A stretch of 64,000 nucleotides of DNA from a virus (IMGVR_UViG_3300024181_000003:13801-77800); one strand, 5' to 3'. Counted from the stretch's first letter, positions 1,139-57,697 are shown. Notes: generated by a model not told the origin, from the letters alone. A program made the numbers and translations.

Positions 1139-2081
1139 AAAGGGTGAGACGGACGCATTTGTGGCCGTAGCAGAACGCCGTGTGCAGGGATTGCACATGG
1201 GCATCAACCGTCAGTTCTTCCAGTACAACACCCTATCGGGTGACACTGTACAGGCCGCTGACGGCAACGTTGGAGCACCAGAAGTTATCTCCCAGATCAG
1301 CGCCCCGGCGCAGGTCGGCGAGTGGAACAACTACTCCAACTTCTCGGCATTCGCAATCGCTTCGTCGATTGACGAATTGGTCGGGAACTCGGCAGTCGAA
1401 CTCGGCTATCAGGCCGGTCAGTCGATTTCCGAACTGTACAGCGCAGTAGCAGACAGCGCATCTTCTGTGGACGGCAACGTTTCGCAGAACTCGCTTCTGT
1501 CTTCGCCGTACACGCTTGATCTTGCGACCATCCGCGAGATGAAGCAGCAGCTGGTGTCGAACGACGTGCTTCCTTGCAAAAAGGGCATGTTCTACGGCGT
1601 CATCTCGCCGAACGTTCTGGGCGACATCTACAACGCAACGACCGTCAACAACTCGATCGTTGATTTGTTCAAGCGCACAGACGGCGGCATGAAGAAGTTC
1701 GACGAAATCGCTGGCTCTGACCAGACGAAGGAAATCGAACTGCCGGGCACGAACATCATGTTCCGTCAGACCCCGTTTGTCACGAAGACGGCTAACTACC
1801 AGTCCTCGGGCAAGACCGCATACCGCACCTACATCTTCGGCAACTACGCGATGATCGGTGTGTGGCTGCAGGTTCCGGGCGACACGGACCTTGATGAAGG
1901 CGACTGGCGTACGATCGACTGCAAAGTCGTGACCGACGCTCCTCCGTCTTCGTTCGACCCGACGGCAACCATCGGTGGCTGGGCATCTTACCGCTTCCAC
2001 CAGACGGTTACCCTTCCGCCTGCAACGGGTACCAACACCCAGCGCATCCGCTACATCGATAGCGTTCCGGCTATTCAATAG
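1139..2081 (+). CDS. Major capsid protein, exon 2 (spliced product 343 aa; N4-gp56-like HK97 fold suspected)
   Basis: RRVQGLHMGINRQFFQYNTL resembles the N-terminal E-loop region of N4-gp56-like capsids; size and position after the scaffold fit. Confidence 0.75.
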
Positions 2082-40307: not shown

Positions 40308-40492
40308 TTGCCTCTCGCATTCTGGTTCAAAATTGCAATATCGTCCAAGTGCTTCTTTTTCTCGAACTGTTTCTCTAAGTCCTTCGCTTGATAATAGCCC
40401 GGGTTGCACCGGCGCATGTGAACTTTAAGGTCTAACACCGTTGCTCCGCACGCAAGACAAATTGGGTATTCATTAGGTCCGTACATCACCAC
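40304..40492 (-). CDS. Small Zn-finger-like protein
   Basis: CLAC...H...C. Confidence 0.5.
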   Translation of the reverse strand: MVMYGPNEYPICLACGATVLDLKVHMRRCNPGYYQAKDLEKQFEKKKHLDDIAILNQNARGK

Positions 40493-40923
40493 ACCTCCCT
40501 GAATGCATCGGCCAGCGCGAGGTGCAACATGCAGGCTTGGAACGCTTCTCCGTGCGCATCAAAATTCTTGCCGTGGCTTTCGATGTGGCACATTTCGTGA
40601 TCTATCGTTAACTCCATCGTGACCGGTGCAGCGTTCATCTCTCGGTCAACAGTTATCCGACAATGCTCTGGTGAGCTGCATATAGTGGAGCCAAGAAGGC
40701 GGCCCAAATTTTCATCAAACAATTTGTCCACCACCACTATTTTCACATCCTCGGGCAACCGGTTGGAAAAATAATCCTGATTCATAATCTTGTAATGGGC
40801 CTCCAACCGCTCGCTGGTCCTCCCGACCACCTTCGGATAGGAGGCGGCAGAGTGAGTTTGGGTGAGGCAACTGTACAAAACTCCAAAACCGATTGCTAGA
40901 AGTATTTTCCAACGTAGTTTCAC
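40486..40923 (-). CDS. SprT-like metalloprotease with N-terminal anchor (paralog)
   Basis: GTG start reading MKLRWKILLAIG; IDHEMCH...HGEAFQACM. Confidence 0.75.
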   Translation of the reverse strand: MKLRWKILLAIGFGVLYSCLTQTHSAASYPKVVGRTSERLEAHYKIMNQDYFSNRLPEDVKIVVVDKLFDENLGRLLGSTICSSPEHCRITVDREMNAAPVTMELTIDHEMCHIESHGKNFDAHGEAFQACMLHLALADAFREVW

Positions 40924-41111
40924 TCTTTCACCTCTTCTGCGAGCATTTCGACGGCGGTAGCTAGATTTCGCTGGCGGCTGCCGTCGTTCAGAATGATGTG
41001 GTACCAACGACCGCCGTCTGACTTCTTGGCGACAAATGTGCCGCTGCCATCTTTCATCCGAAACTTTTTATAGCCCTTCTCGACGGGTTGAATGTTGACG
41101 AGATCGGTCAT
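40920..41111 (-). CDS. Hypothetical protein
   Basis: 63 aa, coupled overlaps. Confidence 0.5.
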   Translation of the reverse strand: MTDLVNIQPVEKGYKKFRMKDGSGTFVAKKSDGGRWYHIILNDGSRQRNLATAVEMLAEEVKE

Positions 41112-43710: not shown

Positions 43711-44274
43711 CTAGAATACGACGATTTGCGCCGCCGTCAAAACTTTGTTGACGTAGATGTGTCCGTGGACTTCGCTATATCCGTTGTAGTGATGGAGCCC
43801 TTCTACCAGCCCGTATTTTCGTACATAGGCGGATAGGATGTTGGCACCGATTCTGATGTTTTTCTCGGGGTCTGTGAGGTCGGCCCGGTGTCCCCAGACT
43901 TTGGCGTTAACTTGCATGAGCCCAACTGAGCCAAGACCGTCTTTAGCTTGTACGTTACCATGGGATTCGACGGTGACCACACCTGCCAAGAGACGCGGAG
44001 ATAGTCCATATTCGATTGCGACTTTTGCCGTGATCTCGGAGAACGTCTCACGGACGTGATTCGTCCGGTATACCATCCGGGCGGCAGCAACAGCTCGCTC
44101 GTATTTTTTCTTGGCCGCTTGACGGGCTTTTTCGCTTTGCTCACGCTTTACCTCACTTTTGATGTGCGCCTCTGTCACAGGCACGAACTTGATCGGCTTG
44201 GGGGCTGGCGTGACGAACCAGAAAGAGGTCGCCAGAGCCAGATATCCTGCCAGTACGATGAACGTCCGTGTCAT
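43711..44274 (-). CDS. Lytic transglycosylase (SLT) with N-terminal TM segment
   Basis: VES catalytic Glu, GLMQ, NIRIGANIL, HYNG. Confidence 0.85.
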   Translation of the reverse strand: MTRTFIVLAGYLALATSFWFVTPAPKPIKFVPVTEAHIKSEVKREQSEKARQAAKKKYERAVAAARMVYRTNHVRETFSEITAKVAIEYGLSPRLLAGVVTVESHGNVQAKDGLGSVGLMQVNAKVWGHRADLTDPEKNIRIGANILSAYVRKYGLVEGLHHYNGYSEVHGHIYVNKVLTAAQIVVF

Positions 44275-44364
44275 AATCCTCCAGATTAAAGTCGGAACCA
44301 TATTTAAGGCCCGGGCATCCCGGGGTAGAGAGGCTGGTTCCGGCCACCCCTCATTTCGTGAACC

Positions 44365-45260: not shown

Positions 45261-45481
45261 GTTTCTGTGCTCCGAGCCAAGTCTATCAGGGTCAGTTTGT
45301 TTTGTAAAGAGGCGTTCTCTTTACGGAGTTGATCGAGACCTTCGAATACGATCTGCCACATGTGCAGGACATTGTCGAAGTGCTCTTGCTGGTCGGGCTC
45401 CGGGCTTCCGTATTTCTCGTTGATCTCGGTGTCCAGCCAGCCTTGGGCGTAAACAACCGTGCTGAGTTTGTGTGAGTTCAT
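45257..45481 (-). CDS. Hypothetical protein
   Basis: 74 aa; GGAGG RBS; ATGA overlaps. Confidence 0.5.
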   Translation of the reverse strand: MNSHKLSTVVYAQGWLDTEINEKYGSPEPDQQEHFDNVLHMWQIVFEGLDQLRKENASLQNKLTLIDLARSTET

Positions 45482-45822
45482 AATCCGCCTTCCATGGTCT
45501 TCTTTTTCTTCTTGATCTCTTCTTCCCGTTGTTTCTCCCACTCTTCTTGCAGATGGTGGAAGTAGTACTGATTCTTGAGTTCTTTGTTAACAAAACTGAC
45601 GGCCACGAACATCGAGTGACAGGTGACGCATACCTCGCCGACCTTGGGGACAATAAAATTTTCTTCGCGCAAGGCCGATATCGGCCAACGACAGTATGGG
45701 TTGCTGCACTTCTTGCTGTAGTTCTCGGCTACCGCCGCCATGAACTGCACATTCTTATCGCAAACTTCTGACGCACCCTCTTCTCCGATACGCCACGTCT
45801 TGAAACGATTTTTGTCGATCAT
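45478..45822 (-). CDS. Hypothetical Cys-containing protein
   Basis: CSNPYC...CVTC. Confidence 0.5.
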   Translation of the reverse strand: MIDKNRFKTWRIGEEGASEVCDKNVQFMAAVAENYSKKCSNPYCRWPISALREENFIVPKVGEVCVTCHSMFVAVSFVNKELKNQYYFHHLQEEWEKQREEEIKKKKKTMEGGL

Positions 45823-45823
45823 G

Positions 45824-46228
45824 TCAAGAATTCCACCTTTTAATATACTCCAGAACTTTTAGAAGAAGACCCGGATGATTTTCTTCAAATCCAACAGCGA
45901 AGTTACAATACCAATGAATGAGTTGCCGGACTTTCTTACTTTGATGGTTGTGGTCTGTGTGAGCCTTTCTGAAATTTTCGGGTAGCGGCTCCCCACACAA
46001 TCCGCACAAACCTTCTTGATTTTTATACATTCTTTCTTTGTCGGCCAATGTGATACCGCACACGTATTTTAGATAACGGCCCTGTTTTACGGGGTCTTTT
46101 CTATACGATTCTCTTTTCCGTCTTCTGTCTGCGATTTTTCGGTACTCTTTTCTGTCTCGTATGCGATCGTACGCTCTGGCTTTTTCTTTATCTTTATATG
46201 GCATCAGCTGTTTACTCGCTTTCCCCAA
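45824..46228 (-). CDS. Endonuclease VII-like HNH endonuclease
   Basis: Q.G.CGLC...DHNH...VR.L...CN..VG; AT-rich. Confidence 0.75.
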   Translation of the reverse strand: MGKASKQLMPYKDKEKARAYDRIRDRKEYRKIADRRRKRESYRKDPVKQGRYLKYVCGITLADKERMYKNQEGLCGLCGEPLPENFRKAHTDHNHQSKKVRQLIHWYCNFAVGFEENHPGLLLKVLEYIKRWNS

Positions 46229-46740
46229 CCAGCCGCAAACTTGTTGGTCTGTGGCTTGTTCATCACAACTTTCAAAATGTGTGCAACCAGCGCCGACTTG
46301 TATGAGTTCAGCAACGAGTTCTCCTCGGACTGGTTGATTGCGTTCAGCGTATCTGGTCCGAAACTTCCATCGATCTCGGTGCCGTAGGTCGGGTTGAGCG
46401 TTGCCTGCAACAAACGGACTGCCACGCCGACGCCGAATAGCACGCCCATGTCGAAAAGCTTCTCCGCAATTAACTGGGAGTCGATCTGGGAATAGCCTGT
46501 CTTCCAGTAACCCTCGGCGTACACATCCTCTACCATGTTCTGCAGCGGGACGTCTGTGTCGAGAATCCTCGGGAAGTCTGGGCTGTTCTTGTAATTGTCG
46601 ATGATCTGCCAGCCGGACCAGTTGGCGTGGTTTCTGCGACTGACGCCACGGTACGTTTCACCGCCCGGGTCGCACGGGTCGTTGAGGTAACCGCCCTCGT
46701 TGACCAGAGTCTTGAGAACTGCTTCATGAAAGTTTGCCAT
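46204..46740 (-). CDS. GH108-family lysozyme (endolysin)
   Basis: EGGYLNDPCDPGGETYRG; LFDMGV..G; DGSFGPDTL peptidoglycan-binding motif; GW..R. Confidence 0.85.
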   Translation of the reverse strand: MANFHEAVLKTLVNEGGYLNDPCDPGGETYRGVSRRNHANWSGWQIIDNYKNSPDFPRILDTDVPLQNMVEDVYAEGYWKTGYSQIDSQLIAEKLFDMGVLFGVGVAVRLLQATLNPTYGTEIDGSFGPDTLNAINQSEENSLLNSYKSALVAHILKVVMNKPQTNKFAAGWGKRVNS

Positions 46741-47227
46741 AGTATGTTTCCTTTGTGATCGGGTCCTTATCAACTGCCCGAAAATACTCCTTTTCTTCGA
46801 TGCGCTTAATCCAATTGCAGGTTGGGCAAAGTAGTTGAAATCGCTTCGGGTGTTTCAAAACTTTTTTAAGTATCTGCAGGTTCCACAATTTTAACCGATC
46901 TTTGTTTCCGTTCCCTCTTTTATGATCTATATGTAAAATTCTCAAATCTCTGCAGCCTAACGTCTCATCGTCGTTTAAGTGACGACACTTTGGGTTAGCG
47001 CATTTTCCTCCCAAAAGAGTCAAGACTTGTCTTCGCAGTGCTCGGACGTACGCTCTTGTGTAATCACGCAGTTTAACTCTATTCTTAGCGCTCCATAGCC
47101 TCCGATAGCGTATACAAGACGCACACTGCTTTCTATCCTTAGCCAGTTTTCGCTTTCCACACTGCGGACATAATCCTAGTTTTGTGGCATCCTTTCGTTT
47201 TCTCGCTGCTCGATCTTTGGCTGTCAT
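46724..47227 (-). CDS. HNH endonuclease
   Basis: LGGKC..C...LHIDH..G.G...LLCPTCNWIK; AT-rich. Confidence 0.7.
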   Translation of the reverse strand: MTAKDRAARKRKDATKLGLCPQCGKRKLAKDRKQCASCIRYRRLWSAKNRVKLRDYTRAYVRALRRQVLTLLGGKCANPKCRHLNDDETLGCRDLRILHIDHKRGNGNKDRLKLWNLQILKKVLKHPKRFQLLCPTCNWIKRIEEKEYFRAVDKDPITKETYYGKLS

Positions 47228-47862
47228 TGTTTTTTCGGACCACATGACTGATATTTATCGGGATGTGCAATAAACTTTTGCATTTCTACAGGCGAGTAGT
47301 TCGTATACTCAAGTGCGAACAGGCGCTGCCACGGGTTCTTCAACTGCTTGGTCGGGTCGAATGACAACAGTTCAGCGTCCCGCTCCAATCGTTCCGGCTT
47401 GTGGAAGCCGTCCCAGATATTGTGCAGGTGTCCGTGGATGTTGTAGATTGCGCCTGGTGGCAGGATAGCTGAGGGCTCGTGGGTCAGCCACATCTGGCGG
47501 AACATCAAAGAGTCGCAGGCGAACTGAAAGCCGCCCTTCTGCATCCACCATGTGTTTGACTGCGAGCGGTCGTGGTTACCACGGATGAGAATTTTGGTGC
47601 CGGGCAGGTCGGCGATACGGTCTTCCCGTTTACCGATCAGCACGTCGCCCAAGTGGATAACTAAATCCTCTGGCTTGACGGTACGTTTCCAGTTATTCAA
47701 AACCAGTTCGGTAAAATTGGCCGGACGCTGACAGTAGGTCAGCATGACGCCGCCTTCTTTGTCATGGTTCAGATGCGTATCTGCAATCAAGTATACGTTC
47801 ATATTTTCACTATCCTCAATGTAGCTGTCGTGCCAGTCGCCAATTTTATAGAAGTCCGTCAT
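47224..47862 (-). CDS. Calcineurin-like metallophosphoesterase
   Basis: DTH, HLGD, GNHD, THEP, HGHLH. Confidence 0.85.
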   Translation of the reverse strand: MTDFYKIGDWHDSYIEDSENMNVYLIADTHLNHDKEGGVMLTYCQRPANFTELVLNNWKRTVKPEDLVIHLGDVLIGKREDRIADLPGTKILIRGNHDRSQSNTWWMQKGGFQFACDSLMFRQMWLTHEPSAILPPGAIYNIHGHLHNIWDGFHKPERLERDAELLSFDPTKQLKNPWQRLFALEYTNYSPVEMQKFIAHPDKYQSCGPKKQ

Positions 47863-48307
47863 ACGCCCCGGCCATGAACAGTCGGAACAGTTCAGCTTGG
47901 TAGATCATGCCGTGCCCGGGGTTATGGGTCGGATGCCCTACATAAGTGCTCTCTAGCGCTGCGTGCGCCATCTCGTGCAGCAAGAGCAGGCAAGCGATCG
48001 ACTCAGACCGTCCGTAGGTCGAGTCAATCCAAATCTCGTTGACCGCCGGTCGCCACGCTGCGTCAGCCTCGTGGCACTTGTTGATCTTTCGAAGCTGGGC
48101 CGGGCTGACCAGCCGGACCTTGACCGTCCGGTTGATTCGGTTGCCGAAAAACGTTTCGTTAAAGCCGTGGAACAGAATTTGCATGTCCTTCTCTTTCAGG
48201 ATATGGCGCTTTTCTCGCTTCGGTTTCTTGGCCGAAACGTCAAGCAGCCTGTCTATATCTTCCTTCGTCAGTTTCTTGAATTTCTTTCTGTTCGACTTGA
48301 ACGTCAT
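47846..48307 (-). CDS. SprT-like metalloprotease (soluble)
   Basis: FNETFFG; LLHEMAH...HG..YQ. Confidence 0.7.
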   Translation of the reverse strand: MTFKSNRKKFKKLTKEDIDRLLDVSAKKPKREKRHILKEKDMQILFHGFNETFFGNRINRTVKVRLVSPAQLRKINKCHEADAAWRPAVNEIWIDSTYGRSESIACLLLLHEMAHAALESTYVGHPTHNPGHGMIYQAELFRLFMAGAYDGLL

Positions 48308-48600
48308 AGTTCGGCCCCCTCTGGAAATCTCGTAGTTTTGAATGCAACCTTTTGTCGCTTTTCTTCTTTTTCTTTCTCCTCACGACAAAACCAGCATTGC
48401 TTCAAACCGTCTTCGATCACGCTCTCCAACACGATTCGCTTATCAACGGCCAACTCATACGCTAGTTGGCTCAACTTGATCTCTGTGTTAAACTCCGGGT
48501 GTTTTTGACAGACCACGTAGAATCTGCCCATCGGGTCCGCAGCACTGACACACTGTATCAGACGACCCTTGGAATTTTCGTATTCCCACTGTTGACTCAT
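48304..48600 (-). CDS. Hypothetical protein
   Basis: MSQQWEY...CWFC; ATGA overlaps. Confidence 0.5.
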   Translation of the reverse strand: MSQQWEYENSKGRLIQCVSAADPMGRFYVVCQKHPEFNTEIKLSQLAYELAVDKRIVLESVIEDGLKQCWFCREEKEKEEKRQKVAFKTTRFPEGAEL

Positions 48601-49424
48601 ATCCGTATCCACCTCTCCGGTATTAGATCGCTGGTGTCCATCGACTTGTCGAGGAACCAACGCTTCGGCGCAACGATCACTTGGTCCTGTTTTGTTTCTC
48701 CGAGCCATGCGCCCCACCAACTGAATGAACTGTTTGCCATTACAGCGTGCTGGCAACTAGCCATGAGTGTCAGATCGTGCTCTTCTTGGCCATTGTGGGT
48801 CGTTGTTGTCGGACGGTCGCCGCCGATTACCCGCCACTCGTACGGTAGCTTAAAATTGTCTTGAACCCATGCCGGGTCGTCTGAGAATACGAAGACCTTC
48901 GGGTTGACACGCTGCGCCACCAACTCAAGCGCACCCAAATAGTAGTTCATGTCCATCTCGCCGTGGAATGTGTTGCCGATGTAGTCTGTGCGGCGCACGG
49001 TCAAGAATGTCGAACGCTCACCCGCTTCCCAGATATCCCACATGTCCTTGGCGACCTGTCCACTCGTTGGTCGAGTCTTGGGCAAGAAAATGTGTCGAAT
49101 GTCGGTCGAGTGGTTTTTGAAATACTTTTCAGACTGCCAATAGCCCTCGATGCACATGTTGTCGTGAACTCGTTCGTCGATCTTCGGGTTGTACGCGAAG
49201 CCGCTTTCGTATAGCGTCGGTGCAACACCCGTTACTATCTTCTCTCGAACGCCAACCCAACGGCCAAGCATGTAAACACGTCTGAAATCTGTGCTCTCGA
49301 CGTCTGGCACACGGCTGATGTCCAGCTGCATCTCGACGCCTAGACGCTTGGCTTGTGCGTAGCCCATGCTATATTGAAATAGTTGATTTCCCATCCCACC
49401 TTTAAGGACCACGGTGATGCTCAT
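48597..49424 (-). CDS. GT11 alpha-1,2-fucosyltransferase
   Basis: GGMGNQLFQY, GYWQSEKYF, VRRTDY, FSDD, NSSFSWWGAWL. Confidence 0.9.
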   Translation of the reverse strand: MSITVVLKGGMGNQLFQYSMGYAQAKRLGVEMQLDISRVPDVESTDFRRVYMLGRWVGVREKIVTGVAPTLYESGFAYNPKIDERVHDNMCIEGYWQSEKYFKNHSTDIRHIFLPKTRPTSGQVAKDMWDIWEAGERSTFLTVRRTDYIGNTFHGEMDMNYYLGALELVAQRVNPKVFVFSDDPAWVQDNFKLPYEWRVIGGDRPTTTTHNGQEEHDLTLMASCQHAVMANSSFSWWGAWLGETKQDQVIVAPKRWFLDKSMDTSDLIPERWIRI

Positions 49425-49936
49425 GAGATTCCTCCCTTCCTACGAAGCCAAGCCAATCTTAGTTTTCTTTTGGTTTCTTTAGAAAACTTTCTACCTAACA
49501 AGGCAGCAGAGATTTTGAGTCCGAATCCCTTTGGCTTAGGTTTTCCTTTTTGAGACTTGCTCATTAGCCGTTTTGTTTCTTCGCTGTGCTTAGTGCCCCG
49601 TTTTGCATCTCCGATCTTCTTTCTTGTTTGCGCCGAATGCTTCCCAGCGAGATGCCCACCAAGATCGACGTTGTATCCATTTTGATGGGATAGGGATTGT
49701 AAGCTTTTAATTAACAGTATCTCAGACTTAGAGGCTTCTTTTCTTGTACGAAAACGACTTTCTTCTCCGATAACAAAGTTCTCCACGCCATATTTCCGCA
49801 TCGCTCTATATAGAGGATGGTTTGTTTCTTGTCTCGCTTCGTAGCAATGCTCCCTCCATCGAGATGCCATATCACGAGTCTGTCCAACATACACTTTCCC
49901 GTTTCTGAGATTTTTAATAGTGTAAACAATCCTCAT
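49421..49936 (-). CDS. GIY-YIG homing endonuclease with NUMOD3-like repeats
   Basis: IVYTIKN...VYVGQT; NGYN; HSAQTRKKIG, HSEETKRLMS, FSKETKRKL. Confidence 0.85.
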   Translation of the reverse strand: MRIVYTIKNLRNGKVYVGQTRDMASRWREHCYEARQETNHPLYRAMRKYGVENFVIGEESRFRTRKEASKSEILLIKSLQSLSHQNGYNVDLGGHLAGKHSAQTRKKIGDAKRGTKHSEETKRLMSKSQKGKPKPKGFGLKISAALLGRKFSKETKRKLRLAWLRRKGGIS

Positions 49937-50634
49937 ATCTCATTCCATTTCTCGCCTTTTGCCCTGATTGCTGCGAAGCCCGGGTGTTTGGCGGCCAAGT
50001 ATTTGTACAGCGACTTCTTGTTGTTATCTGCCCAGTTGTTCATGCCTGTGTCGTTGAGTCGATAGTGAAACAACGGCTCGTGGACAACTTCGTGCTTGTA
50101 GCCCTGCTTGAGAATGCGAAGCCACATGTCCCAGTCCTCCCAGCCACGAAGGTTAGGGTCCCAAGGCCCGGCCATAAGAATCGCCTGCGACCGAACCAAC
50201 GACGTCACCGTGATGTTGTTCGCCTGCAGTTCGGATTCGTAGGTCTGTGTCCATGCTGGCGTGATCGTGCCTTCGAGTTTACCGTGGTAGATCATCTCGG
50301 TTGACACGATGCCGACGTTCGGCTCCATTCTCGCAATCGTCTTCTCGACGTAGGTTGGGTCGATGTAGTCGTCTGCATCAAGCGGCAGCACGTAATCGGT
50401 ATAGACCTCGGCGAACGCCGCGTTCCTGCCACCACAGATTCCCCACGGCTCCTCGTTCGGGTTGTACAGATACATAACGCCGTGGTCGCCGCAGACTTCA
50501 AGCGTGCGATCGGTCGAGTGATCGTCGGCCACGATGATGTCGGCGACCTCGTGGGTCTGGGCTATGACACTACGAATCGCACGATCGAGCATATCGGCCA
50601 TGTTGCGGGTCGGGATGATCACTGTGACGTTCAT
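49933..50634 (-). CDS. GT2 glycosyltransferase
   Basis: VTVIIP, DDHSTD, RNAA, LDADD, EDWD.W. Confidence 0.9.
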   Translation of the reverse strand: MNVTVIIPTRNMADMLDRAIRSVIAQTHEVADIIVADDHSTDRTLEVCGDHGVMYLYNPNEEPWGICGGRNAAFAEVYTDYVLPLDADDYIDPTYVEKTIARMEPNVGIVSTEMIYHGKLEGTITPAWTQTYESELQANNITVTSLVRSQAILMAGPWDPNLRGWEDWDMWLRILKQGYKHEVVHEPLFHYRLNDTGMNNWADNNKKSLYKYLAAKHPGFAAIRAKGEKWNEI

Positions 50635-51335
50635 TCGTAGTTCTTCTTTTCCAAGCAGACGAGTCTCGGAGTCATGTTTTCGATTCCCCACTCACGCCAC
50701 TTCGCCTTGTAGTGTTCGCCAGCGTTCTCCGGGTAACAATACTCTGGGGTCAAGACCATGGCAGGCGGATTGTCGTACAGATAACGGTTCAGGTGCGACT
50801 CGTCGTGCCACACCGCCGTGATGCCGTTGTTCAAGTCCACGTAAGTCTTAGCCTCGATCGTGTGCGCCATGTGCCAGAAGCTTGCACGGTTGCCGCCGAC
50901 AAAGCCGCCAGCGAAGTACCAATTCTTAGAGCCTTCGGGAATCCAAGCCTGCGACTCTGATCTGCGCTCTGGCGTGCCCGGCGTTCCTACGTAACCCGGG
51001 TGCAGCGTTGCCGTGATGCCGCTGGCGAAGATTTCCGGGCCGACCGTGTTGACGAATAGCATGTCGATATCGCAATAGAAGATATTGTCGTACATCGCCA
51101 ACGCACGTTTCTCTTGACCGATCAATGTACGGTAGCGCCACAGCGTCTCGTCCGGGAAGCCAAGCGCCGATTTGTAGATCACATGCTCGGCACGGTACGG
51201 GCAACCAACTGCCGGACGGTCAACGAACAGCACAACCTCGTGCTCAACGAAGTGCTTCCGGGCAGACGCCAACAGCGGCTCGATAAACTTCTGATATCGA
51301 TCGCCGGTCGCTATGACGCACAGTGCCGTTCTCAT
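50631..51335 (-). CDS. GT6 (ABO-like alpha-1,3-Gal/GalNAc transferase)
   Basis: IATG.Y..F, DID, LHPGY, YFAGGFVGG, WHDESHLNRY, L.PEYC. Confidence 0.9.
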   Translation of the reverse strand: MRTALCVIATGDRYQKFIEPLLASARKHFVEHEVVLFVDRPAVGCPYRAEHVIYKSALGFPDETLWRYRTLIGQEKRALAMYDNIFYCDIDMLFVNTVGPEIFASGITATLHPGYVGTPGTPERRSESQAWIPEGSKNWYFAGGFVGGNRASFWHMAHTIEAKTYVDLNNGITAVWHDESHLNRYLYDNPPAMVLTPEYCYPENAGEHYKAKWREWGIENMTPRLVCLEKKNYE

Positions 51336-52015
51336 CGATTCTCCGAGTGCATCTCTTCCATCCACTTGAACTTCGGGTCATACGTGCTGCCACCGAATTT
51401 CGCCTGAGGGAAGTGCAGCGAGTATTCGCCGTGGTTGAAACTCTTGCCTGTGATCTCGCCTGCCATGATGAGCGGTGACAGCACCTGACCGACCCACAAG
51501 TCTTCGGCCCAGCTGGTCGGCGCTTCGTAGTGCAGCAGGCCGATGGCTCGCTGGCTCAGATAATAGCCCCAGCCGCCGCTGGCCCAAGCGTAACACTTCG
51601 GGTGCTTCTCGACAAAGCCGTTGCGGTCAGGCGCATCGTAGTAAAACGTTGTGCCGAACTGGCGACCGAAGACCCCGGCGTAGTCGTAGCTCTCGAATCC
51701 GGTCTTGAGAACCGCACGCTTGACGTAGGTATCGGTGTCGCACAGAAAAATGTTATCGACCATTTTGCCGCTGGCCCAGCGAACGATCGCACGGGTCTTG
51801 TACGGCAGCCCGTTGTAGTCGTCCGGTGCATCGACAGCCACCTCGTCTTTCTCGTAGCGAATGATGTTGGTTGGGTGCGTACTTTTGCCGACGAAAAAGC
51901 GAGTCTCGACGCCGAGCGACTTGAGGGTCTGGCCCCAAGTTTGGCGGATGATCTGGTGGTAGCCACGCTCACGATCTTGCTGGCAGGATTTAACGCAAAC
52001 CATTAGGGGTGACAC
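51332..52015 (-). CDS. GT31-like beta-1,3-glycosyltransferase
   Basis: IRQTWG, DDY..L..KT, CDTDTYV, SGG.GY.LS, EDLWVG; GTG start behind GGAGG. Confidence 0.8.
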   Translation of the reverse strand: MSPLMVCVKSCQQDRERGYHQIIRQTWGQTLKSLGVETRFFVGKSTHPTNIIRYEKDEVAVDAPDDYNGLPYKTRAIVRWASGKMVDNIFLCDTDTYVKRAVLKTGFESYDYAGVFGRQFGTTFYYDAPDRNGFVEKHPKCYAWASGGWGYYLSQRAIGLLHYEAPTSWAEDLWVGQVLSPLIMAGEITGKSFNHGEYSLHFPQAKFGGSTYDPKFKWMEEMHSENR

Positions 52016-52859
52016 GCTTGACCTCCTTGGGTCTCGGCTGATTAAAGCCATAGAACTCTTTCAGGTTTCTCTTCTGCATGAAAAGGTTGTGGCCCTGCTG
52101 CGCCCGGGCACGCAACTTGTGATAGTCCGGGTGTATATAAATCTCGTTGTCGGACTTTATCGTCTCGATCTTTGCGTTCTCAATCCAGACAACCAGCTTG
52201 CCTGCCAGTTTCAGATCGAGGAACCAGTCGGCGTGCTCTCCACCGATCGGTCGAATGTTCTCATCCCACGGTACGTCCTTGAACAATTGGGACCGGCCCA
52301 TAAAATAATTAATGCCCATATCGACCCGCCATGCCGGGTACGGCTTGAGGATGGTCGGGTTTTCCCACCCACGGTCGAGAAGCTGCAGGGCGATGTACTC
52401 GTTCGGCTCGTAGAGAAGATGGCCTTCGTAGCGCATGTTCTCGTAGGTTCCGACAACCAGATCGACGTTATCGTTGCCGTCCAGCGTATCGACCATCCGT
52501 TCGATGCCCTCGCGGACATACTTCAAACTGAAATCATAGTCGTCCGACGCCACGATCGTGTACCGATCACCAGCCACGTCGTTGACTGCGCCAGCACCAG
52601 CATTGCGCTTGGCGGTCAGGCCGCTGTCGTACGGCAGTTCGAACCACTCGTGGTACAGCGTGTTGCCTATGTACGGGCCGCTTTTTCGAACAGCCTCGCC
52701 GACACGCCAAACAGCGTTGTAACTTTCTTCCTTATCATCTGCTGCAACGATCACCTCGACCTCGGGCAAATTCTTCCGAATGCCACGAAGGCACTCCACC
52801 AGATAACCTGTGCGGTGGAATGCCGTCACGACGATCGAAAGCTTGTGGAGGTCAGCCAT
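51990..52859 (-). CDS. GT2-like glycosyltransferase
   Basis: SIVVTAFHR..L, VIVAADD, KRN.G, SDDYD, GEHADWF. Confidence 0.75.
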   Translation of the reverse strand: MADLHKLSIVVTAFHRTGYLVECLRGIRKNLPEVEVIVAADDKEESYNAVWRVGEAVRKSGPYIGNTLYHEWFELPYDSGLTAKRNAGAGAVNDVAGDRYTIVASDDYDFSLKYVREGIERMVDTLDGNDNVDLVVGTYENMRYEGHLLYEPNEYIALQLLDRGWENPTILKPYPAWRVDMGINYFMGRSQLFKDVPWDENIRPIGGEHADWFLDLKLAGKLVVWIENAKIETIKSDNEIYIHPDYHKLRARAQQGHNLFMQKRNLKEFYGFNQPRPKEVKRVTPNGLR

Positions 52860-53784
52860 GCCGTGGGCCCACGCCTATGATTACACTTTCATTTCTACGA
52901 AGAACGCCGTCGACTAGCGTCCGGGCTTGCTGCAGCGGTAAAGTAAATCCGGCTGCATTCTTGTGCCCACCGCCATCCAGTGACGAAGCGATTTTGCTGA
53001 CATCGAAGTCACCGATGCTGCGGAGCGAGAACTGAACTAAGCCATCGCCACGCTCGAACCACGTCATGCCATAGTCTGCCAGCCCGGCCAGCACGTTGCC
53101 GATTTCGCTGCAGTTCAGATAAGTGACGTTGAGCACGGCCACGGTGTCGCCGTCAAGCGTTCCCATCTGCGTGTGCTTTACCGCTTCACGAACATAGTGT
53201 TCGATGTGGGCCAGTGCGCCTGCGCCCAGAGAGACAGCATCGCTTTCATCCAAATCCAAAAGAACGTCCCACGCTTCGAACGTGAACGGCAAAGTGCCGA
53301 TGTATGCATTGATCTCTTTCGAGTTTGTCAACTTCCAGTTCCAAAGATCACGGTCCTCGACATAGTCAACGTACCACGGACGCTCTGCACCGTCATTGCG
53401 TCTCTCGCCTCGTGCGTTTGGCAAGCCACTGTCCCTGCCGAACAGGTAATCCCACGTCAAACCTGCGCCGCTTCGCTTCATGTCAAATACGATCTTGGCG
53501 CATGCGGCCTGTGGCAGACCACCGATCTTCGATTCAGCCGTTTTATGGTGGTCGAGAATCATCGTGTACGAAGCTGCGTCGATCAGAGCGATGTTTTGCT
53601 CTTTGGTCGGCAATGAAAAATCGGTCATGAGAACTCGTTTACCACGGCAGTGCTCGATCAGTTCATCGATGCCCGTCTGACCATGGGCACGGAAGATCAC
53701 CTCAGCATCCGGGTACTTCTTCTTTGCGATGTATGCCGCACAGAACCCATCCGGGCACGCTGCGTGTGAGATGATTATGTCCAT
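52852..53784 (-). CDS. DHH/DHHA1 phosphoesterase
   Basis: H..CPDG..AA, LDHH, SLRS, GGGHKNAAG. Confidence 0.85.
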   Translation of the reverse strand: MDIIISHAACPDGFCAAYIAKKKYPDAEVIFRAHGQTGIDELIEHCRGKRVLMTDFSLPTKEQNIALIDAASYTMILDHHKTAESKIGGLPQAACAKIVFDMKRSGAGLTWDYLFGRDSGLPNARGERRNDGAERPWYVDYVEDRDLWNWKLTNSKEINAYIGTLPFTFEAWDVLLDLDESDAVSLGAGALAHIEHYVREAVKHTQMGTLDGDTVAVLNVTYLNCSEIGNVLAGLADYGMTWFERGDGLVQFSLRSIGDFDVSKIASSLDGGGHKNAAGFTLPLQQARTLVDGVLRRNESVIIGVGPRHG

Positions 53785-54041: not shown

Positions 54042-54399
54042 TCTTTCCCTTCCGGTGTTCGACTGTATGATCTTTTCGAATCGCATTAAAAGCCATCTTC
54101 TCGACGTATGCGCCGCCCAAATCCAGACCGTGCCCGGCACAGTAGTCGAGGATGCGGATGAGTGCGTCTGCCATCTCGACCTCTTCCATCGAACGGTGCG
54201 GCAGCTTGTCGTCGGGCAGGTTCTTGCGGTGCCCTTCCATGGCCTCGGCGATCTCGCTAACAATCAACATCATCATCTCGGCCTTGTTGCGTTTGAGCGG
54301 TGCGCCCGATTCGAGATCGACCCACCACTTCTTGTTGGCTGCGTGAACCTCCTGCGCCAGCTTGTTGATTACCCGTGCTTGAATTTTGTTATCCGCCAC
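54025..54399 (-). CDS. MazG-like nucleotide pyrophosphohydrolase
   Basis: SEIAEAMEG.R...EVEMADALIRILD. Confidence 0.8.
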   Translation of the reverse strand: MADNKIQARVINKLAQEVHAANKKWWVDLESGAPLKRNKAEMMMLIVSEIAEAMEGHRKNLPDDKLPHRSMEEVEMADALIRILDYCAGHGLDLGGAYVEKMAFNAIRKDHTVEHRKGKNGKKF

Positions 54400-56035
54400 A
54401 TTCGCCTCCTTTGGTCAAATCGCAGACTGTGCTGCCTGATTCTTCGTAGATGTGTCCCTCGTTAGCCAACGCCACAGACAGCGGAACCGGGTTGAGCGGC
54501 TGGCCGGGACGGGCCTGATCTGGGTAGACAGTAAGGCCACGCAGACCGGGCAGGTACTTGACGAGCATATTACCGAAATCCCGCACTCTGGTGTCATTGT
54601 TAAATTCGGTTCCCCACTTGGGTAGATTGATGGTGCTTGAAATACCGTGGTCCACGAACTTCTGGACCCACGCTTGAAAGGCCACTCGCCTCTCAACATC
54701 CTGAGCGAGGTCATAGGCATCTTCGATCAACTCCAGAGGGACGCCCTTATCAAGCAAGCGCTTGGCGGTCGGGTCCACAACGTATTGGTACATCCACATA
54801 TCACCCTTCAAGTAGCGGCGCTTATACGCGGCCACGAAGATCGGTTCGATTCCGGTCGTTGTCTCGGCAACGATGCCGATGGTGCCGACCGGGGCGATTG
54901 CCCGGGTTTTAACCGGCACGCTCAGTTCCCACTGCTTTGCATACTTTCGTGCAAACGCGCCGGATTGCTCGTAAATATGCAAGTACTTTGCTAGCTCTTC
55001 GTCCGGGCCGTACTTCCGATTATGACAAAGCAGCCACTCGTGGAGTCCCATGAGGCCGAGTCCAAGTCTACGATTTTTGTTTCTAACTTTGTCCACCCCG
55101 GCAAAAGGAATATCTGAGTAGACAGTACCTGCCAAGAGGAAGGCAGTAGCCAATTCCACAACCTTTTCCATTTCTTCCAGAGACTCAATTCTCGCCATGT
55201 TAATGGAGCCAAGATTACACACGTCGGAGTCGTCTGGGCTTGTAACCTCTGTGCACGCGTTGCGTAGTGTCTCTCGACTATTTTTCCCGAGGTCAATAGA
55301 GAAACCGGGTTCGCCCGTTTCCAGCATATGTCGTACCGTTGACCAATATACGGATTGTGCAAGCGTATGATTCTCGTGACTTTCATCGTGGTATGCCTCA
55401 AAGAAGTCGTCGTTTAGAAGGACTGAGATGTTCGTCATGTCCATCGTGGCCGGGAAGTTGAAGTCCTTGGCCTTGAGCGCCAGCACTTCCGGCGTCCAAT
55501 CCTTCAGACGGATAAACTTTTGAATGTCTGCGTGGTCCCAAGCCAGCCCGGCCCAGATTGCAGACCGGCGGCTGCCGCCCTGCATGATGTATCGGCCAGA
55601 CTCGTTGACCATCTTCATCAACGCAATCGGACCTGTCGAGTAGCCGCCCGTCTTACGAATCAGCTTGCCCTCAGGACGGATGTCGCTATAGTCAGACCCA
55701 ATACCACCACCCGTCATAAGCGACAAGGTTGCCTTCTGCATCAAATCCGACCAGCCTTCCCGGGAGTCTTCCGCTCGAAACAGAAAGCAGTTGTTGACCT
55801 GATGGAACAAGCGGCCCGTTGCGGCGAGATATCGACCGCCCGGCACGAACTTTCGTTCTTCGATGATCTTGCGTGTCGCCTCCACTTGCGATTTCGGTGC
55901 GTGAACCGCACGTAGGACATGTTTTGAAACTCTGTACGCTATGTTGGCCCATGTTTCCTTCTCCCCTTCCTTGTTCAAATGGGAGTACTTCTGCTCCATA
56001 ATCGTTTGTGCGAACTTACTCATCTCAACGGGCAT
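54389..56035 (-). CDS. nrdJ: Compact class II (B12-dependent) ribonucleotide reductase
   Basis: PGGRYL, NNC, NACTE, CNLGSIN, LGLGLMG, APVGT, C-terminal C.....ECG pair; no beta-subunit gene nearby. Confidence 0.8.
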   Translation of the reverse strand: MPVEMSKFAQTIMEQKYSHLNKEGEKETWANIAYRVSKHVLRAVHAPKSQVEATRKIIEERKFVPGGRYLAATGRLFHQVNNCFLFRAEDSREGWSDLMQKATLSLMTGGGIGSDYSDIRPEGKLIRKTGGYSTGPIALMKMVNESGRYIMQGGSRRSAIWAGLAWDHADIQKFIRLKDWTPEVLALKAKDFNFPATMDMTNISVLLNDDFFEAYHDESHENHTLAQSVYWSTVRHMLETGEPGFSIDLGKNSRETLRNACTEVTSPDDSDVCNLGSINMARIESLEEMEKVVELATAFLLAGTVYSDIPFAGVDKVRNKNRRLGLGLMGLHEWLLCHNRKYGPDEELAKYLHIYEQSGAFARKYAKQWELSVPVKTRAIAPVGTIGIVAETTTGIEPIFVAAYKRRYLKGDMWMYQYVVDPTAKRLLDKGVPLELIEDAYDLAQDVERRVAFQAWVQKFVDHGISSTINLPKWGTEFNNDTRVRDFGNMLVKYLPGLRGLTVYPDQARPGQPLNPVPLSVALANEGHIYEESGSTVCDLTKGGECGG

Positions 56036-56699
56036 GCTTCAAACTCCGATCGGTTCCTCGAAGGCCCTTGACGTACAGACCTCGGTTAATTCCACGGCTG
56101 ACCTTCTGTTGCCGGGTCTTGCGGTCTGCTTTACGACGATACCCTTTCTTGAAGAGTTGGATGGCGATGGCACGGGCGGCCAGCATCTGGTCCTCTTCCT
56201 TATCGTACGCCCCGGCCAAGGTCGGGAATAATTCACGGGTCAGTTCAACGACCTGCAACATGTTTGGATTCGGGCGACGAAACTTGCGCTTGCCTGCGAA
56301 CTGCTTTGCGCCGACAATGGCCTTGATGGTTGGCTTCTGATTGTGCAGCGGCACGGTTGCGTAGACGGTTGTCCGTTCGCCGGTCTCGATATCTTCGTCA
56401 ATCCACAGTTCCTTGAAACGCTGTTCGCACTTCTGCGAATCACGATGGCGTAATACGCACACTAGGCATTTGATCATTTTGCCCAGTTCCGGGTGGCGGC
56501 CAGAGAATGACTTGCCCCTGATCTCTGCCGTGGCTGCGTCTGCTGCCTTCTGAGCCTCTGGAGAGACTACGAATACAGGCTTGTCTTCCGGCACGGTGCC
56601 ACCGGGCACGATCTCGTATTGGCTAACCACGTTCTCGGTCACGCCATCTTCGGTGTACTTGCGGACGCTCTTCTCGATTTTTTCGAACTCTTCGCTCAT
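56025..56699 (-). CDS. Hypothetical protein with Zn site
   Basis: CLVC..RH....C. Confidence 0.55.
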   Translation of the reverse strand: MSEEFEKIEKSVRKYTEDGVTENVVSQYEIVPGGTVPEDKPVFVVSPEAQKAADAATAEIRGKSFSGRHPELGKMIKCLVCVLRHRDSQKCEQRFKELWIDEDIETGERTTVYATVPLHNQKPTIKAIVGAKQFAGKRKFRRPNPNMLQVVELTRELFPTLAGAYDKEEDQMLAARAIAIQLFKKGYRRKADRKTRQQKVSRGINRGLYVKGLRGTDRSLKHAR

Positions 56700-57697
56700 A
56701 CCGCCTCCGTCCAAATCGCTGGGTCGTTCCTCGACCAGCTAATGCCTGCCGCAACTATTCTGTCACCACACTCCTGATAGTCGCCCTCTTCGATCTTCTT
56801 CAACGAGTACGCCAGCAGCGCTTGATTGCGGTCGCTGTACGTATCTGTTGCTGCCGGGTCCTTGGATGATGCAACCGGTGCCCTGTCCATGACCAACTCT
56901 TCTTGGTCGAGGCCGGGCTCGTCGTCGCCACCGATCTGAGAAATGATCGGCACGCCCATATCGAAGTCTCGGCCCTGCTGTGTCAAACGACCGTTCACAG
57001 GCTCGGGTTTAATACCTATTTTCACTCGAAATAAAAGAATATCGACCCCGTACTCTTCGATACGCTCGAAAGCAGAAAAATCGCCGTCCATAGATTTTTC
57101 TACATCACTCACCGAAATAGGCGTTATCCGAGGAGGGTTTGATGGCGCTATTCTATACTTTTCTGATCTATCGAATGCTTTTTTGTAAAACGCTGTTGCC
57201 GATGCTTCGGTTTCTCTGAGCGGCTCGTTTCCGGCGTATGCTCGATGTATGTGTGGCTTCTCAATGGTGGGGACTCGTGGTGTTCTCATTCGCATATCCA
57301 TGCGATACTTTTCTGTTTTCAGGTCGATCGGTTTAGTTGCCGCTGGTAAGATTCGCTCAAGTTCTTTTCTTTGAACTCCGATAGACGATACCAAGACGAT
57401 ATCGCTACTGTAACGAAAGTCTTGTTCTCTGAACTCTAATACTTTTTCAGAGCCTTTGCAGAGATCGCAAGTCTTTTTCTCTTGCGGAGTCATAGAACAA
57501 CAAAATGGGCAATTAACAGCCACACTTTCTCTGATACGCTCGATAGCGATCCATCTGGCGGCCCGCTCCTTAACAAGGGCGTTTGCCTCGTCGTATTCTA
57601 TCATTTTCTTACATTGGCACTTGGGCGCTGGCGGTTCTGAGAGCCCAATGGCCACCAACTCTTGTCCGATACACCCTGAGTGCATTCTGACCTTCAT
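56696..57697 (-). CDS. Hypothetical protein with Cys motifs
   Basis: CQC; CPFC..CDLCKG; AT-rich middle. Confidence 0.55.
   Translation of the reverse strand: MKVRMHSGCIGQELVAIGLSEPPAPKCQCKKMIEYDEANALVKERAARWIAIERIRESVAVNCPFCCSMTPQEKKTCDLCKGSEKVLEFREQDFRYSSDIVLVSSIGVQRKELERILPAATKPIDLKTEKYRMDMRMRTPRVPTIEKPHIHRAYAGNEPLRETEASATAFYKKAFDRSEKYRIAPSNPPRITPISVSDVEKSMDGDFSAFERIEEYGVDILLFRVKIGIKPEPVNGRLTQQGRDFDMGVPIISQIGGDDEPGLDQEELVMDRAPVASSKDPAATDTYSDRNQALLAYSLKKIEEGDYQECGDRIVAAGISWSRNDPAIWTEAV

Follow-up and report, generated by a model that had tools for sequence, protein, structure and literature searches.

A phage operon of five soluble glycosyltransferases with a predicted blood-group-A-like glycan product

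In chromosomal O-antigen loci of the E. coli O86 type, wzx/wzy are found along with gmd/fcl and a priming enzyme, and the beta-1,3-galactosyltransferase WbnJ belongs to family GT2. The bacterial beta-1,3-galactosyltransferase steps WbiP and WbgO are GT2 as well (PMC4202792 Table 3). Bacterial GT6 enzymes of the O86/BoGT6a type have an NxN motif, are metal-independent and carry a C-terminal membrane-binding domain; the donor tripeptide x-G-G (LGG in GTA, AGG in BoGT6a) marks the A-synthase subtype, as opposed to MGA or HAA, and in BoGT6a the segment A155-G-G-L sets the specificity for UDP-GalNAc (PMC3516806). PaGT6 is the sole member of the DxD prokaryotic clade to have been assayed. It uses the H trisaccharide and 2'-fucosyllactose as acceptors for GalNAc, so that H acceptors are converted to the A determinant, with Mg/Mn, and it is inactive on LacNAc.

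On phage genomes, clusters of GT11 and DxD-type GT6 genes with other glycosyltransferase genes are already known. The Prochlorococcus cyanomyophage P-SSM2 (AY939844) has an 'LPS' gene cluster, PSSM2_260-271, which has been annotated since 2005 and for which host cell surface alteration was the proposed role (Sullivan et al. 2005, PMC1079782). The initial annotation of the DNA studied here held that phage GT6 and GT11 genes are individually known; the public P-SSM2 annotation also has them together. We analysed a window of 64,000 nucleotides from an uncultured, ~100-kb, soil-type phage, along with the 77.8-kb record from which it was taken.

Gene identities and translational coupling

Six genes are located on the minus strand between 48597 and 52859, as initially annotated, in the order GTa, GT31, GT6, GT2, GIY-YIG and GT11 (Table 1). 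The translational coupling claimed for them was evident at most junctions. ATGA start/stop overlaps join GT31 to GT6 (ATG 51335), GT6 to GT2 (ATG 50634), GT2 to the GIY-YIG ORF, the latter to GT11, and GT11 to the next ORF, so the operon continues downstream. The DHH and GTa genes overlap by 8 nt, and GTa and GT31 by 14 nt or 62 nt, depending on whether GT31 starts at M17 or at M1; the N-termini of homologs (alignment A3) make M17 (ATG 52003) the likely true start. Promoters and terminators showed no excess, and no transmembrane helices were predicted in the glycosyltransferases. Judged from the sequence, the phage does encode an operon of five soluble glycosyltransferases for glycan extension.

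Table 1. Coordinates and assignments of the operon genes and their direct neighbours
Gene	Coordinates	Strand	Assignment	Match
DHH	52852..53784	-	DHH/DHHA1 phosphoesterase	Pfam DHHA1 E 2e-8; phrog_4771 E 4.9e-66
GTa	51990..52859	-	Soluble GT-A glycosyltransferase, GT12-like; closest solved relative human B4GALNT1 (beta-1,4-GalNAc-transferase)	
GT31	51332..52051	-	GT31-like beta-1,3-galactosyl/GlcNAc-transferase homolog	PF01762
GT6	50631..51365	-	GT6, DxD prokaryote/phage clade	PF03414
GT2	49933..50691	-	GT2 glycosyltransferase	PF00535
GIY-YIG	49421..49936	-	GIY-YIG/NUMOD3 free-standing homing endonuclease	PF01541 + PF07460
GT11	48597..49424	-	GT11 alpha-1,2-fucosyltransferase homolog, T-x-R-R-x-D-Y subclade	PF01531
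ORF	48304..48600	-	98-aa ORF	ATGA-coupled to GT11 stop

The first gene had been called GT2-like. Its product did not reach the cutoff of the Pfam GT2 model (E 3e-3), and both profile and fold point to a GT12-like (B4GALNT1-like) enzyme instead. A profile of 14 homologs (alignment A2) matched B4GALNT1 (9h6j, E 2.4e-21) over 239 positions (7-245), with chondroitin synthase far behind (8.5e-9), and the AF2 model (pLDDT 83) had 9h6k as its best Foldseek match (E 4.5e-16, 22% identity). The motifs DDxD (D106, D107, D109) and GGEH are invariant. In all, 657 homologs were found, which are metagenomic and mostly unnamed. For GT31, the initial assignment was upheld by the Galactosyl_T model (E 1.8e-8, 34.8 bits, cutoff 23), by an invariant DxD (D105-T-D107), and by B3GalT5 as top match of both the A3 profile (8zwp, 2.5e-9; C1GALT1, 9e-6; B3GNT2, 2e-5) and the AF2 model (pLDDT 91; Foldseek 5.6e-11).

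Pfam matches also bear out the assignments of GT2, GIY-YIG and GT11. GT2 (Glycos_transf_2, E 3.4e-27; 233 aa from the likely start at ATG 50634) had TuaG/EpsE/PglI-like proteins as its best NCBIfam matches, all sub-cutoff, and a PglI-type beta-1,3-glucosyltransferase (9jma, 2e-11) as nearest PDB match. GT31, GT2 and the GT12-like enzyme share 17-22% identity with solved structures and are too distant from characterised enzymes for donor, linkage and acceptor to be fixed. The GIY-YIG ORF (also phrog_314, E 1.9e-35) is absent at this position from relatives in which GT2 and GT11 abut; by this comparison, it is a mobile element inserted between the two genes and stands outside the pathway.

GT11 matched Glyco_transf_11 (E 4.8e-22, 79 bits, cutoff 23.9) and phrog_2644 (E 4.7e-47) and contains the motifs GGxGNQxFQY at its N-terminus and NSSFSWWGAWL at its C-terminus. 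In place of HxRRxD, of which the first Arg is reportedly the critical residue (PMC4202792), it has TVRRTDY, with both Arg and the Asp kept and His replaced by Thr. The initial annotation listed this Thr as a caveat. The residue is there, but T[VI]RR[TSG]DY also occurs in 37 of the 120 nearest GT11 homologs, one of them a 99% identical relative, which argues that the Thr is subclade-typical and no defect. The enzyme is only 34-39% identical to the GT11 of family relatives and belongs to a subclade other than that of the phage family's GT11.

The GT6 was recognised by Glyco_transf_6 with E 7.9e-32 (110.7 bits, cutoff 25); its best PDB matches were BoGT6a (4ayj, 5e-33) and then human GTA. M11 (ATG 51335, in the ATGA overlap with the GT31 stop) is the likely true start and would leave a minimal single domain of 234 aa, the length found in the 96% identical relative P0001; the clade typically has ~230 aa. 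DID (D99-I-D101) and YFAGGFVGG are both present as described earlier, the donor tripeptide is A152-G-G, and the reading given to DxD and AGG agrees with PMC3516806. Its residues Y150, W186 and E189 (the catalytic Glu of W-H-D-E-S) correspond to acceptor contacts of BoGT6a. Our criteria for admission of a 2'-fucosyl group were His at A1, Gly or Ser at A2 and a small residue at A7. H122 and G124 align where alpha3GT, a non-fucose enzyme, has Gln and Trp; A7 was assigned to C237 from motif spacing alone, as this residue lies three positions ahead of the invariant K240. The key residues are conserved across 160 loci. We predict that the enzyme is an alpha-1,3-GalNAc-transferase acting on Fuc-alpha-1,2-Gal. 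The earlier generalisation that bacterial GT6 have NXN was too broad, as DxD is found in every one of the 80 bacterial loci from this clade, which belong to Chlamydiae, Dependentiae, Verrucomicrobia and others; homologs from Parachlamydiaceae MAGs are 40-44% identical to the phage protein.

Conservation and nested co-occurrence in related phages

A family of uncultured phages of ~100 kb conserves the gene set, which in these genomes occupies one fixed site as an island of variable content. In 13 other IMG/VR phage loci, the same five glycosyltransferase types recurred as a set, and 66 of 80 viral GT6 loci had a GT11 homolog within 10 kb of GT6. The arrangement is therefore not due to chance. 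We also collected 25 family loci via an unrelated marker (orf229). GT31 was present in 19 of these, GT11 in 17 and GT6 in 10, and the content was nested: every locus with GT6 also had GT11, and every locus with GT11 also had GT31. GT2 accompanied GT6 in 10 of 10 family loci, and L003 (11469-13547) encodes a fusion of a GT6 paralog to GT32-like and GT2 domains.

A tree built from six core proteins showed the three states of the island (full, H-type and core-only) to be interleaved; G000 (full) was sister to G005 (H-type) with a value of 100, and G004 (full) to G007 (H-type) with 98. There were thus several independent gains or losses. Presence versus absence of the island maps to a single branch, so that independent events come only from within-clade turnover and are few. 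Island content turns over quickly among family relatives.

The observation that the window lacks nucleotide-sugar synthesis genes can be extended, since none was found in the whole 77.8-kb record, which also gave no Bac_transf, Glycos_transf_4 or Epimerase-family matches. Of the assembly functions, the search covered priming transferases, and none was found in this record or in four relatives. With no priming enzyme or sugar-nucleotide gene found, the initial description of the pathway as 'complete' goes too far.

Predicted glycan and candidate acceptors

We infer the linkages, donors, order of action and target of the glycosyltransferases as follows. The five enzymes, soluble and cytoplasmic, would share one long minus-strand transcript with neighbouring nucleotide-metabolism genes and a lysin gene and most likely work one after another on a single glycan. 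The B4GALNT1-like GTa, and probably also GT2, would build or extend a HexNAc/hexose core, to which GT31 would add beta-1,3-Gal. GT11 would then transfer alpha-1,2-Fuc from GDP-fucose, forming an H-like disaccharide, and GT6 would transfer alpha-1,3-GalNAc from UDP-GalNAc to the same Gal, resulting in a blood-group-A-like terminus. All sugar nucleotides would come from the host. Some relatives carry Gmd directly behind GT11. In L037 it scored 453.7 bits (TIGR01472, cutoff 415) and is accompanied by an Fcl-like gene; the Gmd of L002 scored 443 bits, and a homolog is near GT6 in ~35 of 80 viral loci. Given the putative fucose-admitting residues and the AGG of GT6, these Gmd/Fcl-like genes and the clade-typical Thr, a fucosylated, GalNAc-capped (A-like) terminus is the best reading. 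The initially suggested order of beta-Gal, alpha-1,2-Fuc and GT6 cap fits the comparative data (nesting, Gmd/Fcl-like genes and the GT6-GT2 fusion of L003).

The most likely candidate for the acceptor is a host envelope glycolipid, which could be reached from the cytoplasm without phage priming or export genes. The LPS/LOS core and undecaprenyl-linked units would be such glycolipids; the surface of the infected cell would then be remodelled, similar to the proposal for P-SSM2; such a route would rely wholly on host intermediates. To the whole of this, sequential assembly of an A-like glycan on a host envelope glycolipid, we give a roughly even chance.

It is possible, if rather unlikely, that the same glycan is placed on virion proteins of the phage (capsid, decoration or fibre) and shields or tunes the particle, as known from mycobacteriophages, chloroviruses and mimivirus. 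Soluble enzymes and the absence of a recognised phage priming gene would suit a cytoplasmic protein acceptor, and protein O-GalNAc transferases (ppGalNAc-T2) ranked just after B4GALNT1 in the Foldseek search with GTa; the set, however, includes no recognisable protein-initiating transferase. Several fibre-like ORFs have 21-27% Ser/Thr, and a 1331-aa ORF (12306-16301) has a 30-mer with 60%, but this is usual for fibre proteins and does not amount to a mucin-like composition. Across 14 genomes, no virion protein cluster co-varied with the island. Between island-bearing and island-less relatives, the major capsid protein shares 72-88% identity, and it ends at the same residue in both, which excludes an island-linked C-terminal capsid tail. 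The initial suggestion of Ser/Thr-rich virion proteins as the target thus received no specific support.

A product other than an ABH-type glycan, arising from separate acceptors or from other specificities (GT6 with Gal or another sugar, the GT11-like enzyme with another donor), is unlikely in our view. It would be compatible with the CGG tripeptide in 112 of the 119 nearest GT6 homologs, the Thr variant of the GT11 motif, the fast turnover of island content, and the PseB/FnlA-like, RmlD-like and C-methyltransferase genes of L002, which point to unusual deoxy sugars in some islands. Nesting, Gmd/Fcl-like genes next to GT11, conserved and putatively fucose-accommodating residues and the PaGT6 assay argue instead for Fuc-alpha-1,2-Gal followed by the GT6 cap. 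Glycosylation of phage DNA (hypermodified bases) for evasion of restriction, also raised in the initial annotation, is very improbable. The location of the cluster between the DHH and a metallophosphoesterase gene, with RNR and a MazG-like gene close by, would be in line with it. However, the DHH phosphoesterase is a core gene of the family and not island-specific; it is found in 12 of 14 genomes and in the island-less relatives L174, L182 and L183, hence also without any glycosyltransferase. A thymidylate-synthase-type dNMP hydroxymethylase was not detected: PF00303 had no match in the window record and the four relatives (G000-G004; three of the relatives carry terminal repeats, with a completeness rating of 100%), while a control found it in 10 of 14 genomes. 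GT6, GT11, GT31 and GT12 are glycan-on-glycan enzymes, and we know of no DNA-acting member.

Comparison with known systems

In the virion O-glycosylation of Che8-type mycobacteriophages, which Freeman et al. reportedly described in 2023 (cited in PMC11256854), glycosyltransferases are paired with Ser/Thr-rich C-terminal extensions on capsid or tail-tube proteins. The phage-encoded soluble glycosyltransferases without export genes are similar to those of the window, but no island-linked extension of this kind was seen here. From the vertebrate ganglio-series/ABH set (B4GALNT1, B3GALT4/5, FUT1/2, ABO), the window has one homolog per family (GT12-like, GT31, GT11, GT6). B4GALNT1 and B3GalT5 are the top structural matches of GTa and GT31, though at the low identity given above, and unlike the vertebrate enzymes the phage proteins are soluble, with neither a stem nor a transmembrane region. 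What this resemblance predicts is the chemistry, not the acceptor, and it does not imply a ceramide lipid.

WbnJ/WbnK/WbnI of E. coli O86, a group B mimic, follow the same logic as proposed here, with beta-1,3-Gal, GT11 alpha-1,2-Fuc and a GT6 alpha-1,3 cap. The beta-1,3-Gal step is assigned to GT2 in the bacterial O-antigen loci and to GT31 in the window, and no priming phosphoglycosyltransferase or gmd/fcl was found in the 77.8-kb record. BoGT6a, the A synthase of Bacteroides ovatus, shares the AGG tripeptide and the acceptor residues with the phage GT6.

P-SSM2 likewise has a co-directional phage cluster with GT2, GT11, a DxD-type GT6 (34% identical to the GT6 of the window) and further glycosyltransferases, without priming or export genes, and its role is also only a proposed one. 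P-SSM2 is a T4-like marine myovirus, whereas the soil-type phage is distantly related to the podovirus Tunturi_3. The P-SSM2 cluster includes GT1, GT25, a dioxygenase and an epimerase, the stretch examined has neither a GT31 nor a GT12-like gene in its annotation, and the cluster genes are separated by hypothetical ORFs, while those of the window are contiguous and ATGA-coupled. The GT6 itself belongs to the clade of PaGT6 from Parachlamydia acanthamoebae, which is bacterial where ours is phage-borne, and which has the same ~230 aa, DxD motif and single-domain architecture.

Genome setting and operon layout

The viral record that holds the window is 77.8 kb long and is rated 73% complete in IMG/VR. 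Structural genes occupy the plus strand of the window from 1 to 29 kb, and the minus strand from 29 to 64 kb forms one long block with an integrase, lysis-type genes, RNR, a UvrD-type helicase and further replication genes. The glycosyltransferase (GT) genes lie in this block, and the span of 48597-52859 assigned to them in the initial annotation proved exact, running from the GT11 stop codon to the start of the GT-A gene GTa. DHH, although it adjoins them in the cluster, belongs to the core genes of the family and occurs in relatives without a GT island too.

Homolog alignments indicated later starts for GT31 (M17), GT6 (M11) and GT2 (M20). With these, ATGA start/stop overlaps connect GT31/GT6, GT6/GT2, GT2/GIY, GIY/GT11 and GT11 with the next ORF. 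Because of these overlaps, and because a promoter and terminator scan of the region gave matches at chance level only, we conclude that the island genes belong to one polycistronic unit and do not form a self-promoted moron. A hydrophobic segment fit for a membrane helix was not found in any island protein.

Features of the window discussed in the text (positions in the window)
Feature	Position	Strand	Transcription order	Pfam and PHROG matches	Remarks
Capsid gene	1161-2081	+			
SprT-like ORF	40486-41007	-			Metalloprotease domain; minus-strand block
SLT lysis-type gene	43711-44301	-			Minus-strand block
114-aa ORF	45478-45822	-			Cys-rich; no Pfam family
GH108 lysis-type gene	46204-46773	-			Minus-strand block
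Metallophosphoesterase	47224-47862				Just downstream of island
SprT-like ORF	47846-48307	-			Metalloprotease domain; minus-strand block
GT11	48597-49424	-	Seventh	Well above threshold	
GIY-YIG/NUMOD3 homing endonuclease	49421-49936	-	Sixth	Well above threshold	
GT2	49933-50691	-	Fifth	Well above threshold	
GT6	50631-51365	-	Fourth	Well above threshold	
GT31-like	51332-52051	-	Third	Well above threshold	
GTa	51990-52859	-	Second	Not well above threshold	
DHH phosphoesterase	52852-53784	-	First	Well above threshold	
RNR	54389-56035	-			Class II-type
orf229	56025-56714	-			Basic protein; invariant C-x2-C-x2-R-H-R...C motif
orf333	56696-57697	-			Several CxxC pairs

When compared with cultured phages by megablast, the region had zero matches. 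The nearest cultured phage is Tunturiibacter phage Tunturi_3, an Acidobacteriota podovirus (RNR 62% and capsid 39% identical), in which no homologs of the window GT genes were found. RNR occurs in only 3 of 14 clustered family genomes and is thus apparently accessory in the family. No prophage of the window phage family was found in bacterial genome contigs.

Predicted activities of the island enzymes

The donor and acceptor specificities considered here are derived from homology and co-occurrence. GTa, the first GT gene, had been annotated as GT2-like. A 14-sequence profile instead matched the catalytic domain of human B4GALNT1 (E 2.4e-21), far above generic GT-A matches, and the best fold match of the AF2 model (pLDDT 83) was 9h6k (E 4.5e-16), followed by ppGalNAc-T2. 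On these grounds we regard GTa as B4GALNT1-like (GT12-like); its family of 657 members is metagenomic and mostly unnamed. The GT31-like protein, in a 16-sequence profile, matched human B3GALT5 (2.5e-9), C1GALT1 and B3GNT2, and B3GalT5 was also the top fold match of its AF2 model (pLDDT 91); D105-x-D107 and W-A-E-D are invariant in the alignment. The GT2 protein is soluble and typical of its family, and the relatives with names that come nearest to it (TuaG, EpsE and PglI) act on lipid-linked glycans.

The solved structures closest to the window GT6 are BoGT6a of Bacteroides ovatus (E 5e-33) and then human GTA. In BoGT6a, specificity for UDP-GalNAc is set by the A155-G-G-L segment, and 2'-fucosyllactose is bound by His122, Thr134, Tyr153, Trp189 and Glu192; in the non-fucose enzyme alpha3GT, the His is replaced by Gln, and Gly124 and Ile228 by Trp (PMC3516806). 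The window GT6 carries D99-I-D101, an A152-G-G tripeptide and the catalytic segment W-H-D-E-S, and the positions that match BoGT6a in the HMMER alignment are His, Gly, Thr, Tyr, Trp and Glu. Three residues before the invariant Lys240, a position set by spacing only, most relatives have Ala and the window protein has Cys, a small side chain like that of Ala343 in GTA. Our survey of the clade (80 viral and 80 bacterial loci) found DxD in all, His122 in 157/160, Gly124 in 144/160 and Glu189 in 160/160; the donor tripeptide was AGG in 120 and CGG in 32.

Within the GT6 family, the Prochlorococcus cyanophage P-SSM2 and Parachlamydia acanthamoebae (PaGT6) represent a separate minimal DxD clade, and PaGT6 transfers GalNAc with Mg/Mn onto the H trisaccharide or 2'-fucosyllactose and does not use LacNAc (PMC3516806). 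Bacterial homologs of the window GT6 are distant (at most 46% identical) and come mostly from Chlamydiae, Dependentiae and Verrucomicrobia MAGs. The bacterial loci of the minimal DxD clade (L083-L162) are concentrated in MAGs of obligately protist-associated lineages (Dependentiae/Babeliales, Chlamydiae), together with Verrucomicrobia MAGs. By tblastn, GT11 was located near GT6 in 24/80 bacterial loci as against 65/80 viral loci.

In the window GT11, the motif reads TVRRTDY and retains the Asp and both Arg residues, the first of which is reported to be the critical one (PMC4202792). Among 70 GT11 genes adjoining viral GT6 genes, His is nearly universal and Thr is present in the window GT11 only. 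In a large protein collection, T[VI]RR[TSG]DY was found in 37 of the 120 nearest GT11 homologs, among them one relative at 99% identity and the matches ranked next, at 45-51%. We therefore consider Thr a conserved feature of a subclade and not a lesion, and reject the possibility that GT11 is inactive for want of the His. With its family relatives the window GT11 shares only 34-39% identity, compared with 40-56% for GT6, GT31 and GTa, which suggests that this allele, situated beside a homing endonuclease, was replaced.

Nested gene content in the phage family

A single-protein search of viral contigs gave zero matches, and a degenerate DNA pattern for YFAGGFVGG recovered two distant loci only and missed a near relative. 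An alignment-based scan was required and yielded 509 GT6-encoding viral stretches. In the best 80 of these, a GT11 homolog was located within 10 kb in 66, and all five GT types were present in nearly the same order in 13. One database relative, 35.7 kb long, is 96-99% identical.

Directly upstream of the island, every family member has the conserved neighbours orf229 and orf333, which are useful family markers. Using orf229, we sampled the family without reference to any GT and obtained 25 loci, which carried GT31 (19), GTa (17), GT11 (17) and GT6 (10). GT2 accompanied all 10 GT6 loci, with a weak partial match in one other (L166); five loci had no GT, and L174 was too short to judge. The gene content was nested, as GT6 did not occur without GT11, nor GT11 without GT31. 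Maximum-likelihood analysis of six core proteins, concatenated for 14 genomes, places those that lack the island on a single branch. Within the island-bearing clade, full, H-type (lacking GT6) and core-only states are interleaved with strong support, and the window phage, itself full, has an H-type genome as its sister. This interleaving indicates that the nested pattern arose by several gains or losses, with few independent events.

In one relative (L037), GT11 is followed directly by Gmd, which scores over the equivalog cutoff, and then by an Fcl-like gene; next comes the metallophosphoesterase that is also located downstream in the window; Gmd homologs are near GT6 in about 35 of the best 80 viral loci. 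A complete 101.7-kb relative encodes a 692-aa fusion of a GT6 paralog, a GT32-like DXD region (PF04488) and a GT2 domain (L003:11469-13547, plus strand). In combination, the co-occurrence, the nesting, the tree, the Gmd and Fcl-like genes and this fusion support a single fucose-containing glycan on which GT6 would act after GT11.

In another relative the island runs on for 8 kb (L002:12146-20218, plus strand) with RmlD-like, PseB/FnlA-like, sugar C-methyltransferase and Gmd genes and five unannotated ORFs, suggesting for this phage a 6-deoxy sugar that is methylated or N-acetylated.

Candidate acceptors and known systems

The enzymology is predictable; the real questions are the acceptor and the biological role. 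DNA, one of the targets initially put forward, is an unlikely acceptor: no thymidylate-synthase-type hydroxymethylase turned up in the window record or among four relatives (three have terminal repeats and are rated complete), and DHH is not tied to the island. Another proposal was Ser/Thr-rich virion proteins. Their Ser/Thr levels are those usual in fibre proteins, and no virion protein cluster tracked the island in a gene-content correlation among 14 genomes, in which ORF clusters were built with simple BLAST thresholds, under which fast-evolving fibre genes can fall into separate clusters. In island-bearing and island-less phages alike, capsid protein identity is 72-88% and the final residue is the same. 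The acceptor may nevertheless be a conserved core virion protein. We consider it doubtful that the operon decorates its own phage particle with a blood-group-A-like, ganglio-type glycan, roughly GalNAc-alpha-1,3-(Fuc-alpha-1,2)-Gal-beta-1,3-GalNAc-beta-R. If it did, animal-like glycans would coat a family of phages that infect Gram-negative soil bacteria, and swaps of island genes would alter the coat. Multi-step virion glycosylation pathways would then extend for the first time beyond actinobacteriophages and giant viruses, and this could bear on the concentration of the DxD GT6 clade in amoeba-associated Chlamydiae and Dependentiae. Modification of the host surface would need host intermediates (for example LPS core or undecaprenyl-linked units), since a priming transferase was found in none of the five genomes searched, i.e. 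the window record and four relatives.

The sole non-GT gene tracking the island encodes the 114-aa Cys-rich ORF, present in 9/10 island-bearing and 0/4 island-less genomes; this co-variation may be a phylogenetic coincidence. Capsid gene matches in the window and seven relatives (G005, G006, G009, G010, G012-G014) are interrupted by stops and so divided into two to three parts, and the break positions vary by relative.

Close phage relatives that carry none, one, two, three or five enzymes at one site amount to a natural experiment, and the nested order matches H-then-A biosynthetic logic. Pathway order is thereby open to test, as is the biological role, for which superinfection exclusion by a remodelled surface and a particle glycan coat are candidates.

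GT clusters of phages turn up often in metagenomes, and the label that they usually receive, 'auxiliary metabolic genes', comes without a mechanism. A soil virome paper listed GT6 and GT11 among phage auxiliary genes, and one soil study counted both as carbon-sequestration genes (PMC12016548). New here are the recognition of the first gene as GT12-like, an island whose content is nested and repeatedly reshuffled, Gmd behind GT11 in relatives, with an Fcl-like gene in one of them, and the clade-typical Thr motif of GT11. Our data also bring an abundant group of soil phages into the DxD GT6 clade, from which vertebrate ABO-family genes have been proposed to derive. The P-SSM2 cluster has been annotated since 2005 as GT2, GT1, GT11, GT6, epimerase and GT25 (PMC1079782). 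It shares GT2, GT11 and GT6 with the window island but also has GT1, the epimerase and GT25, and the host-surface role proposed for it is the same as the surface route considered here.
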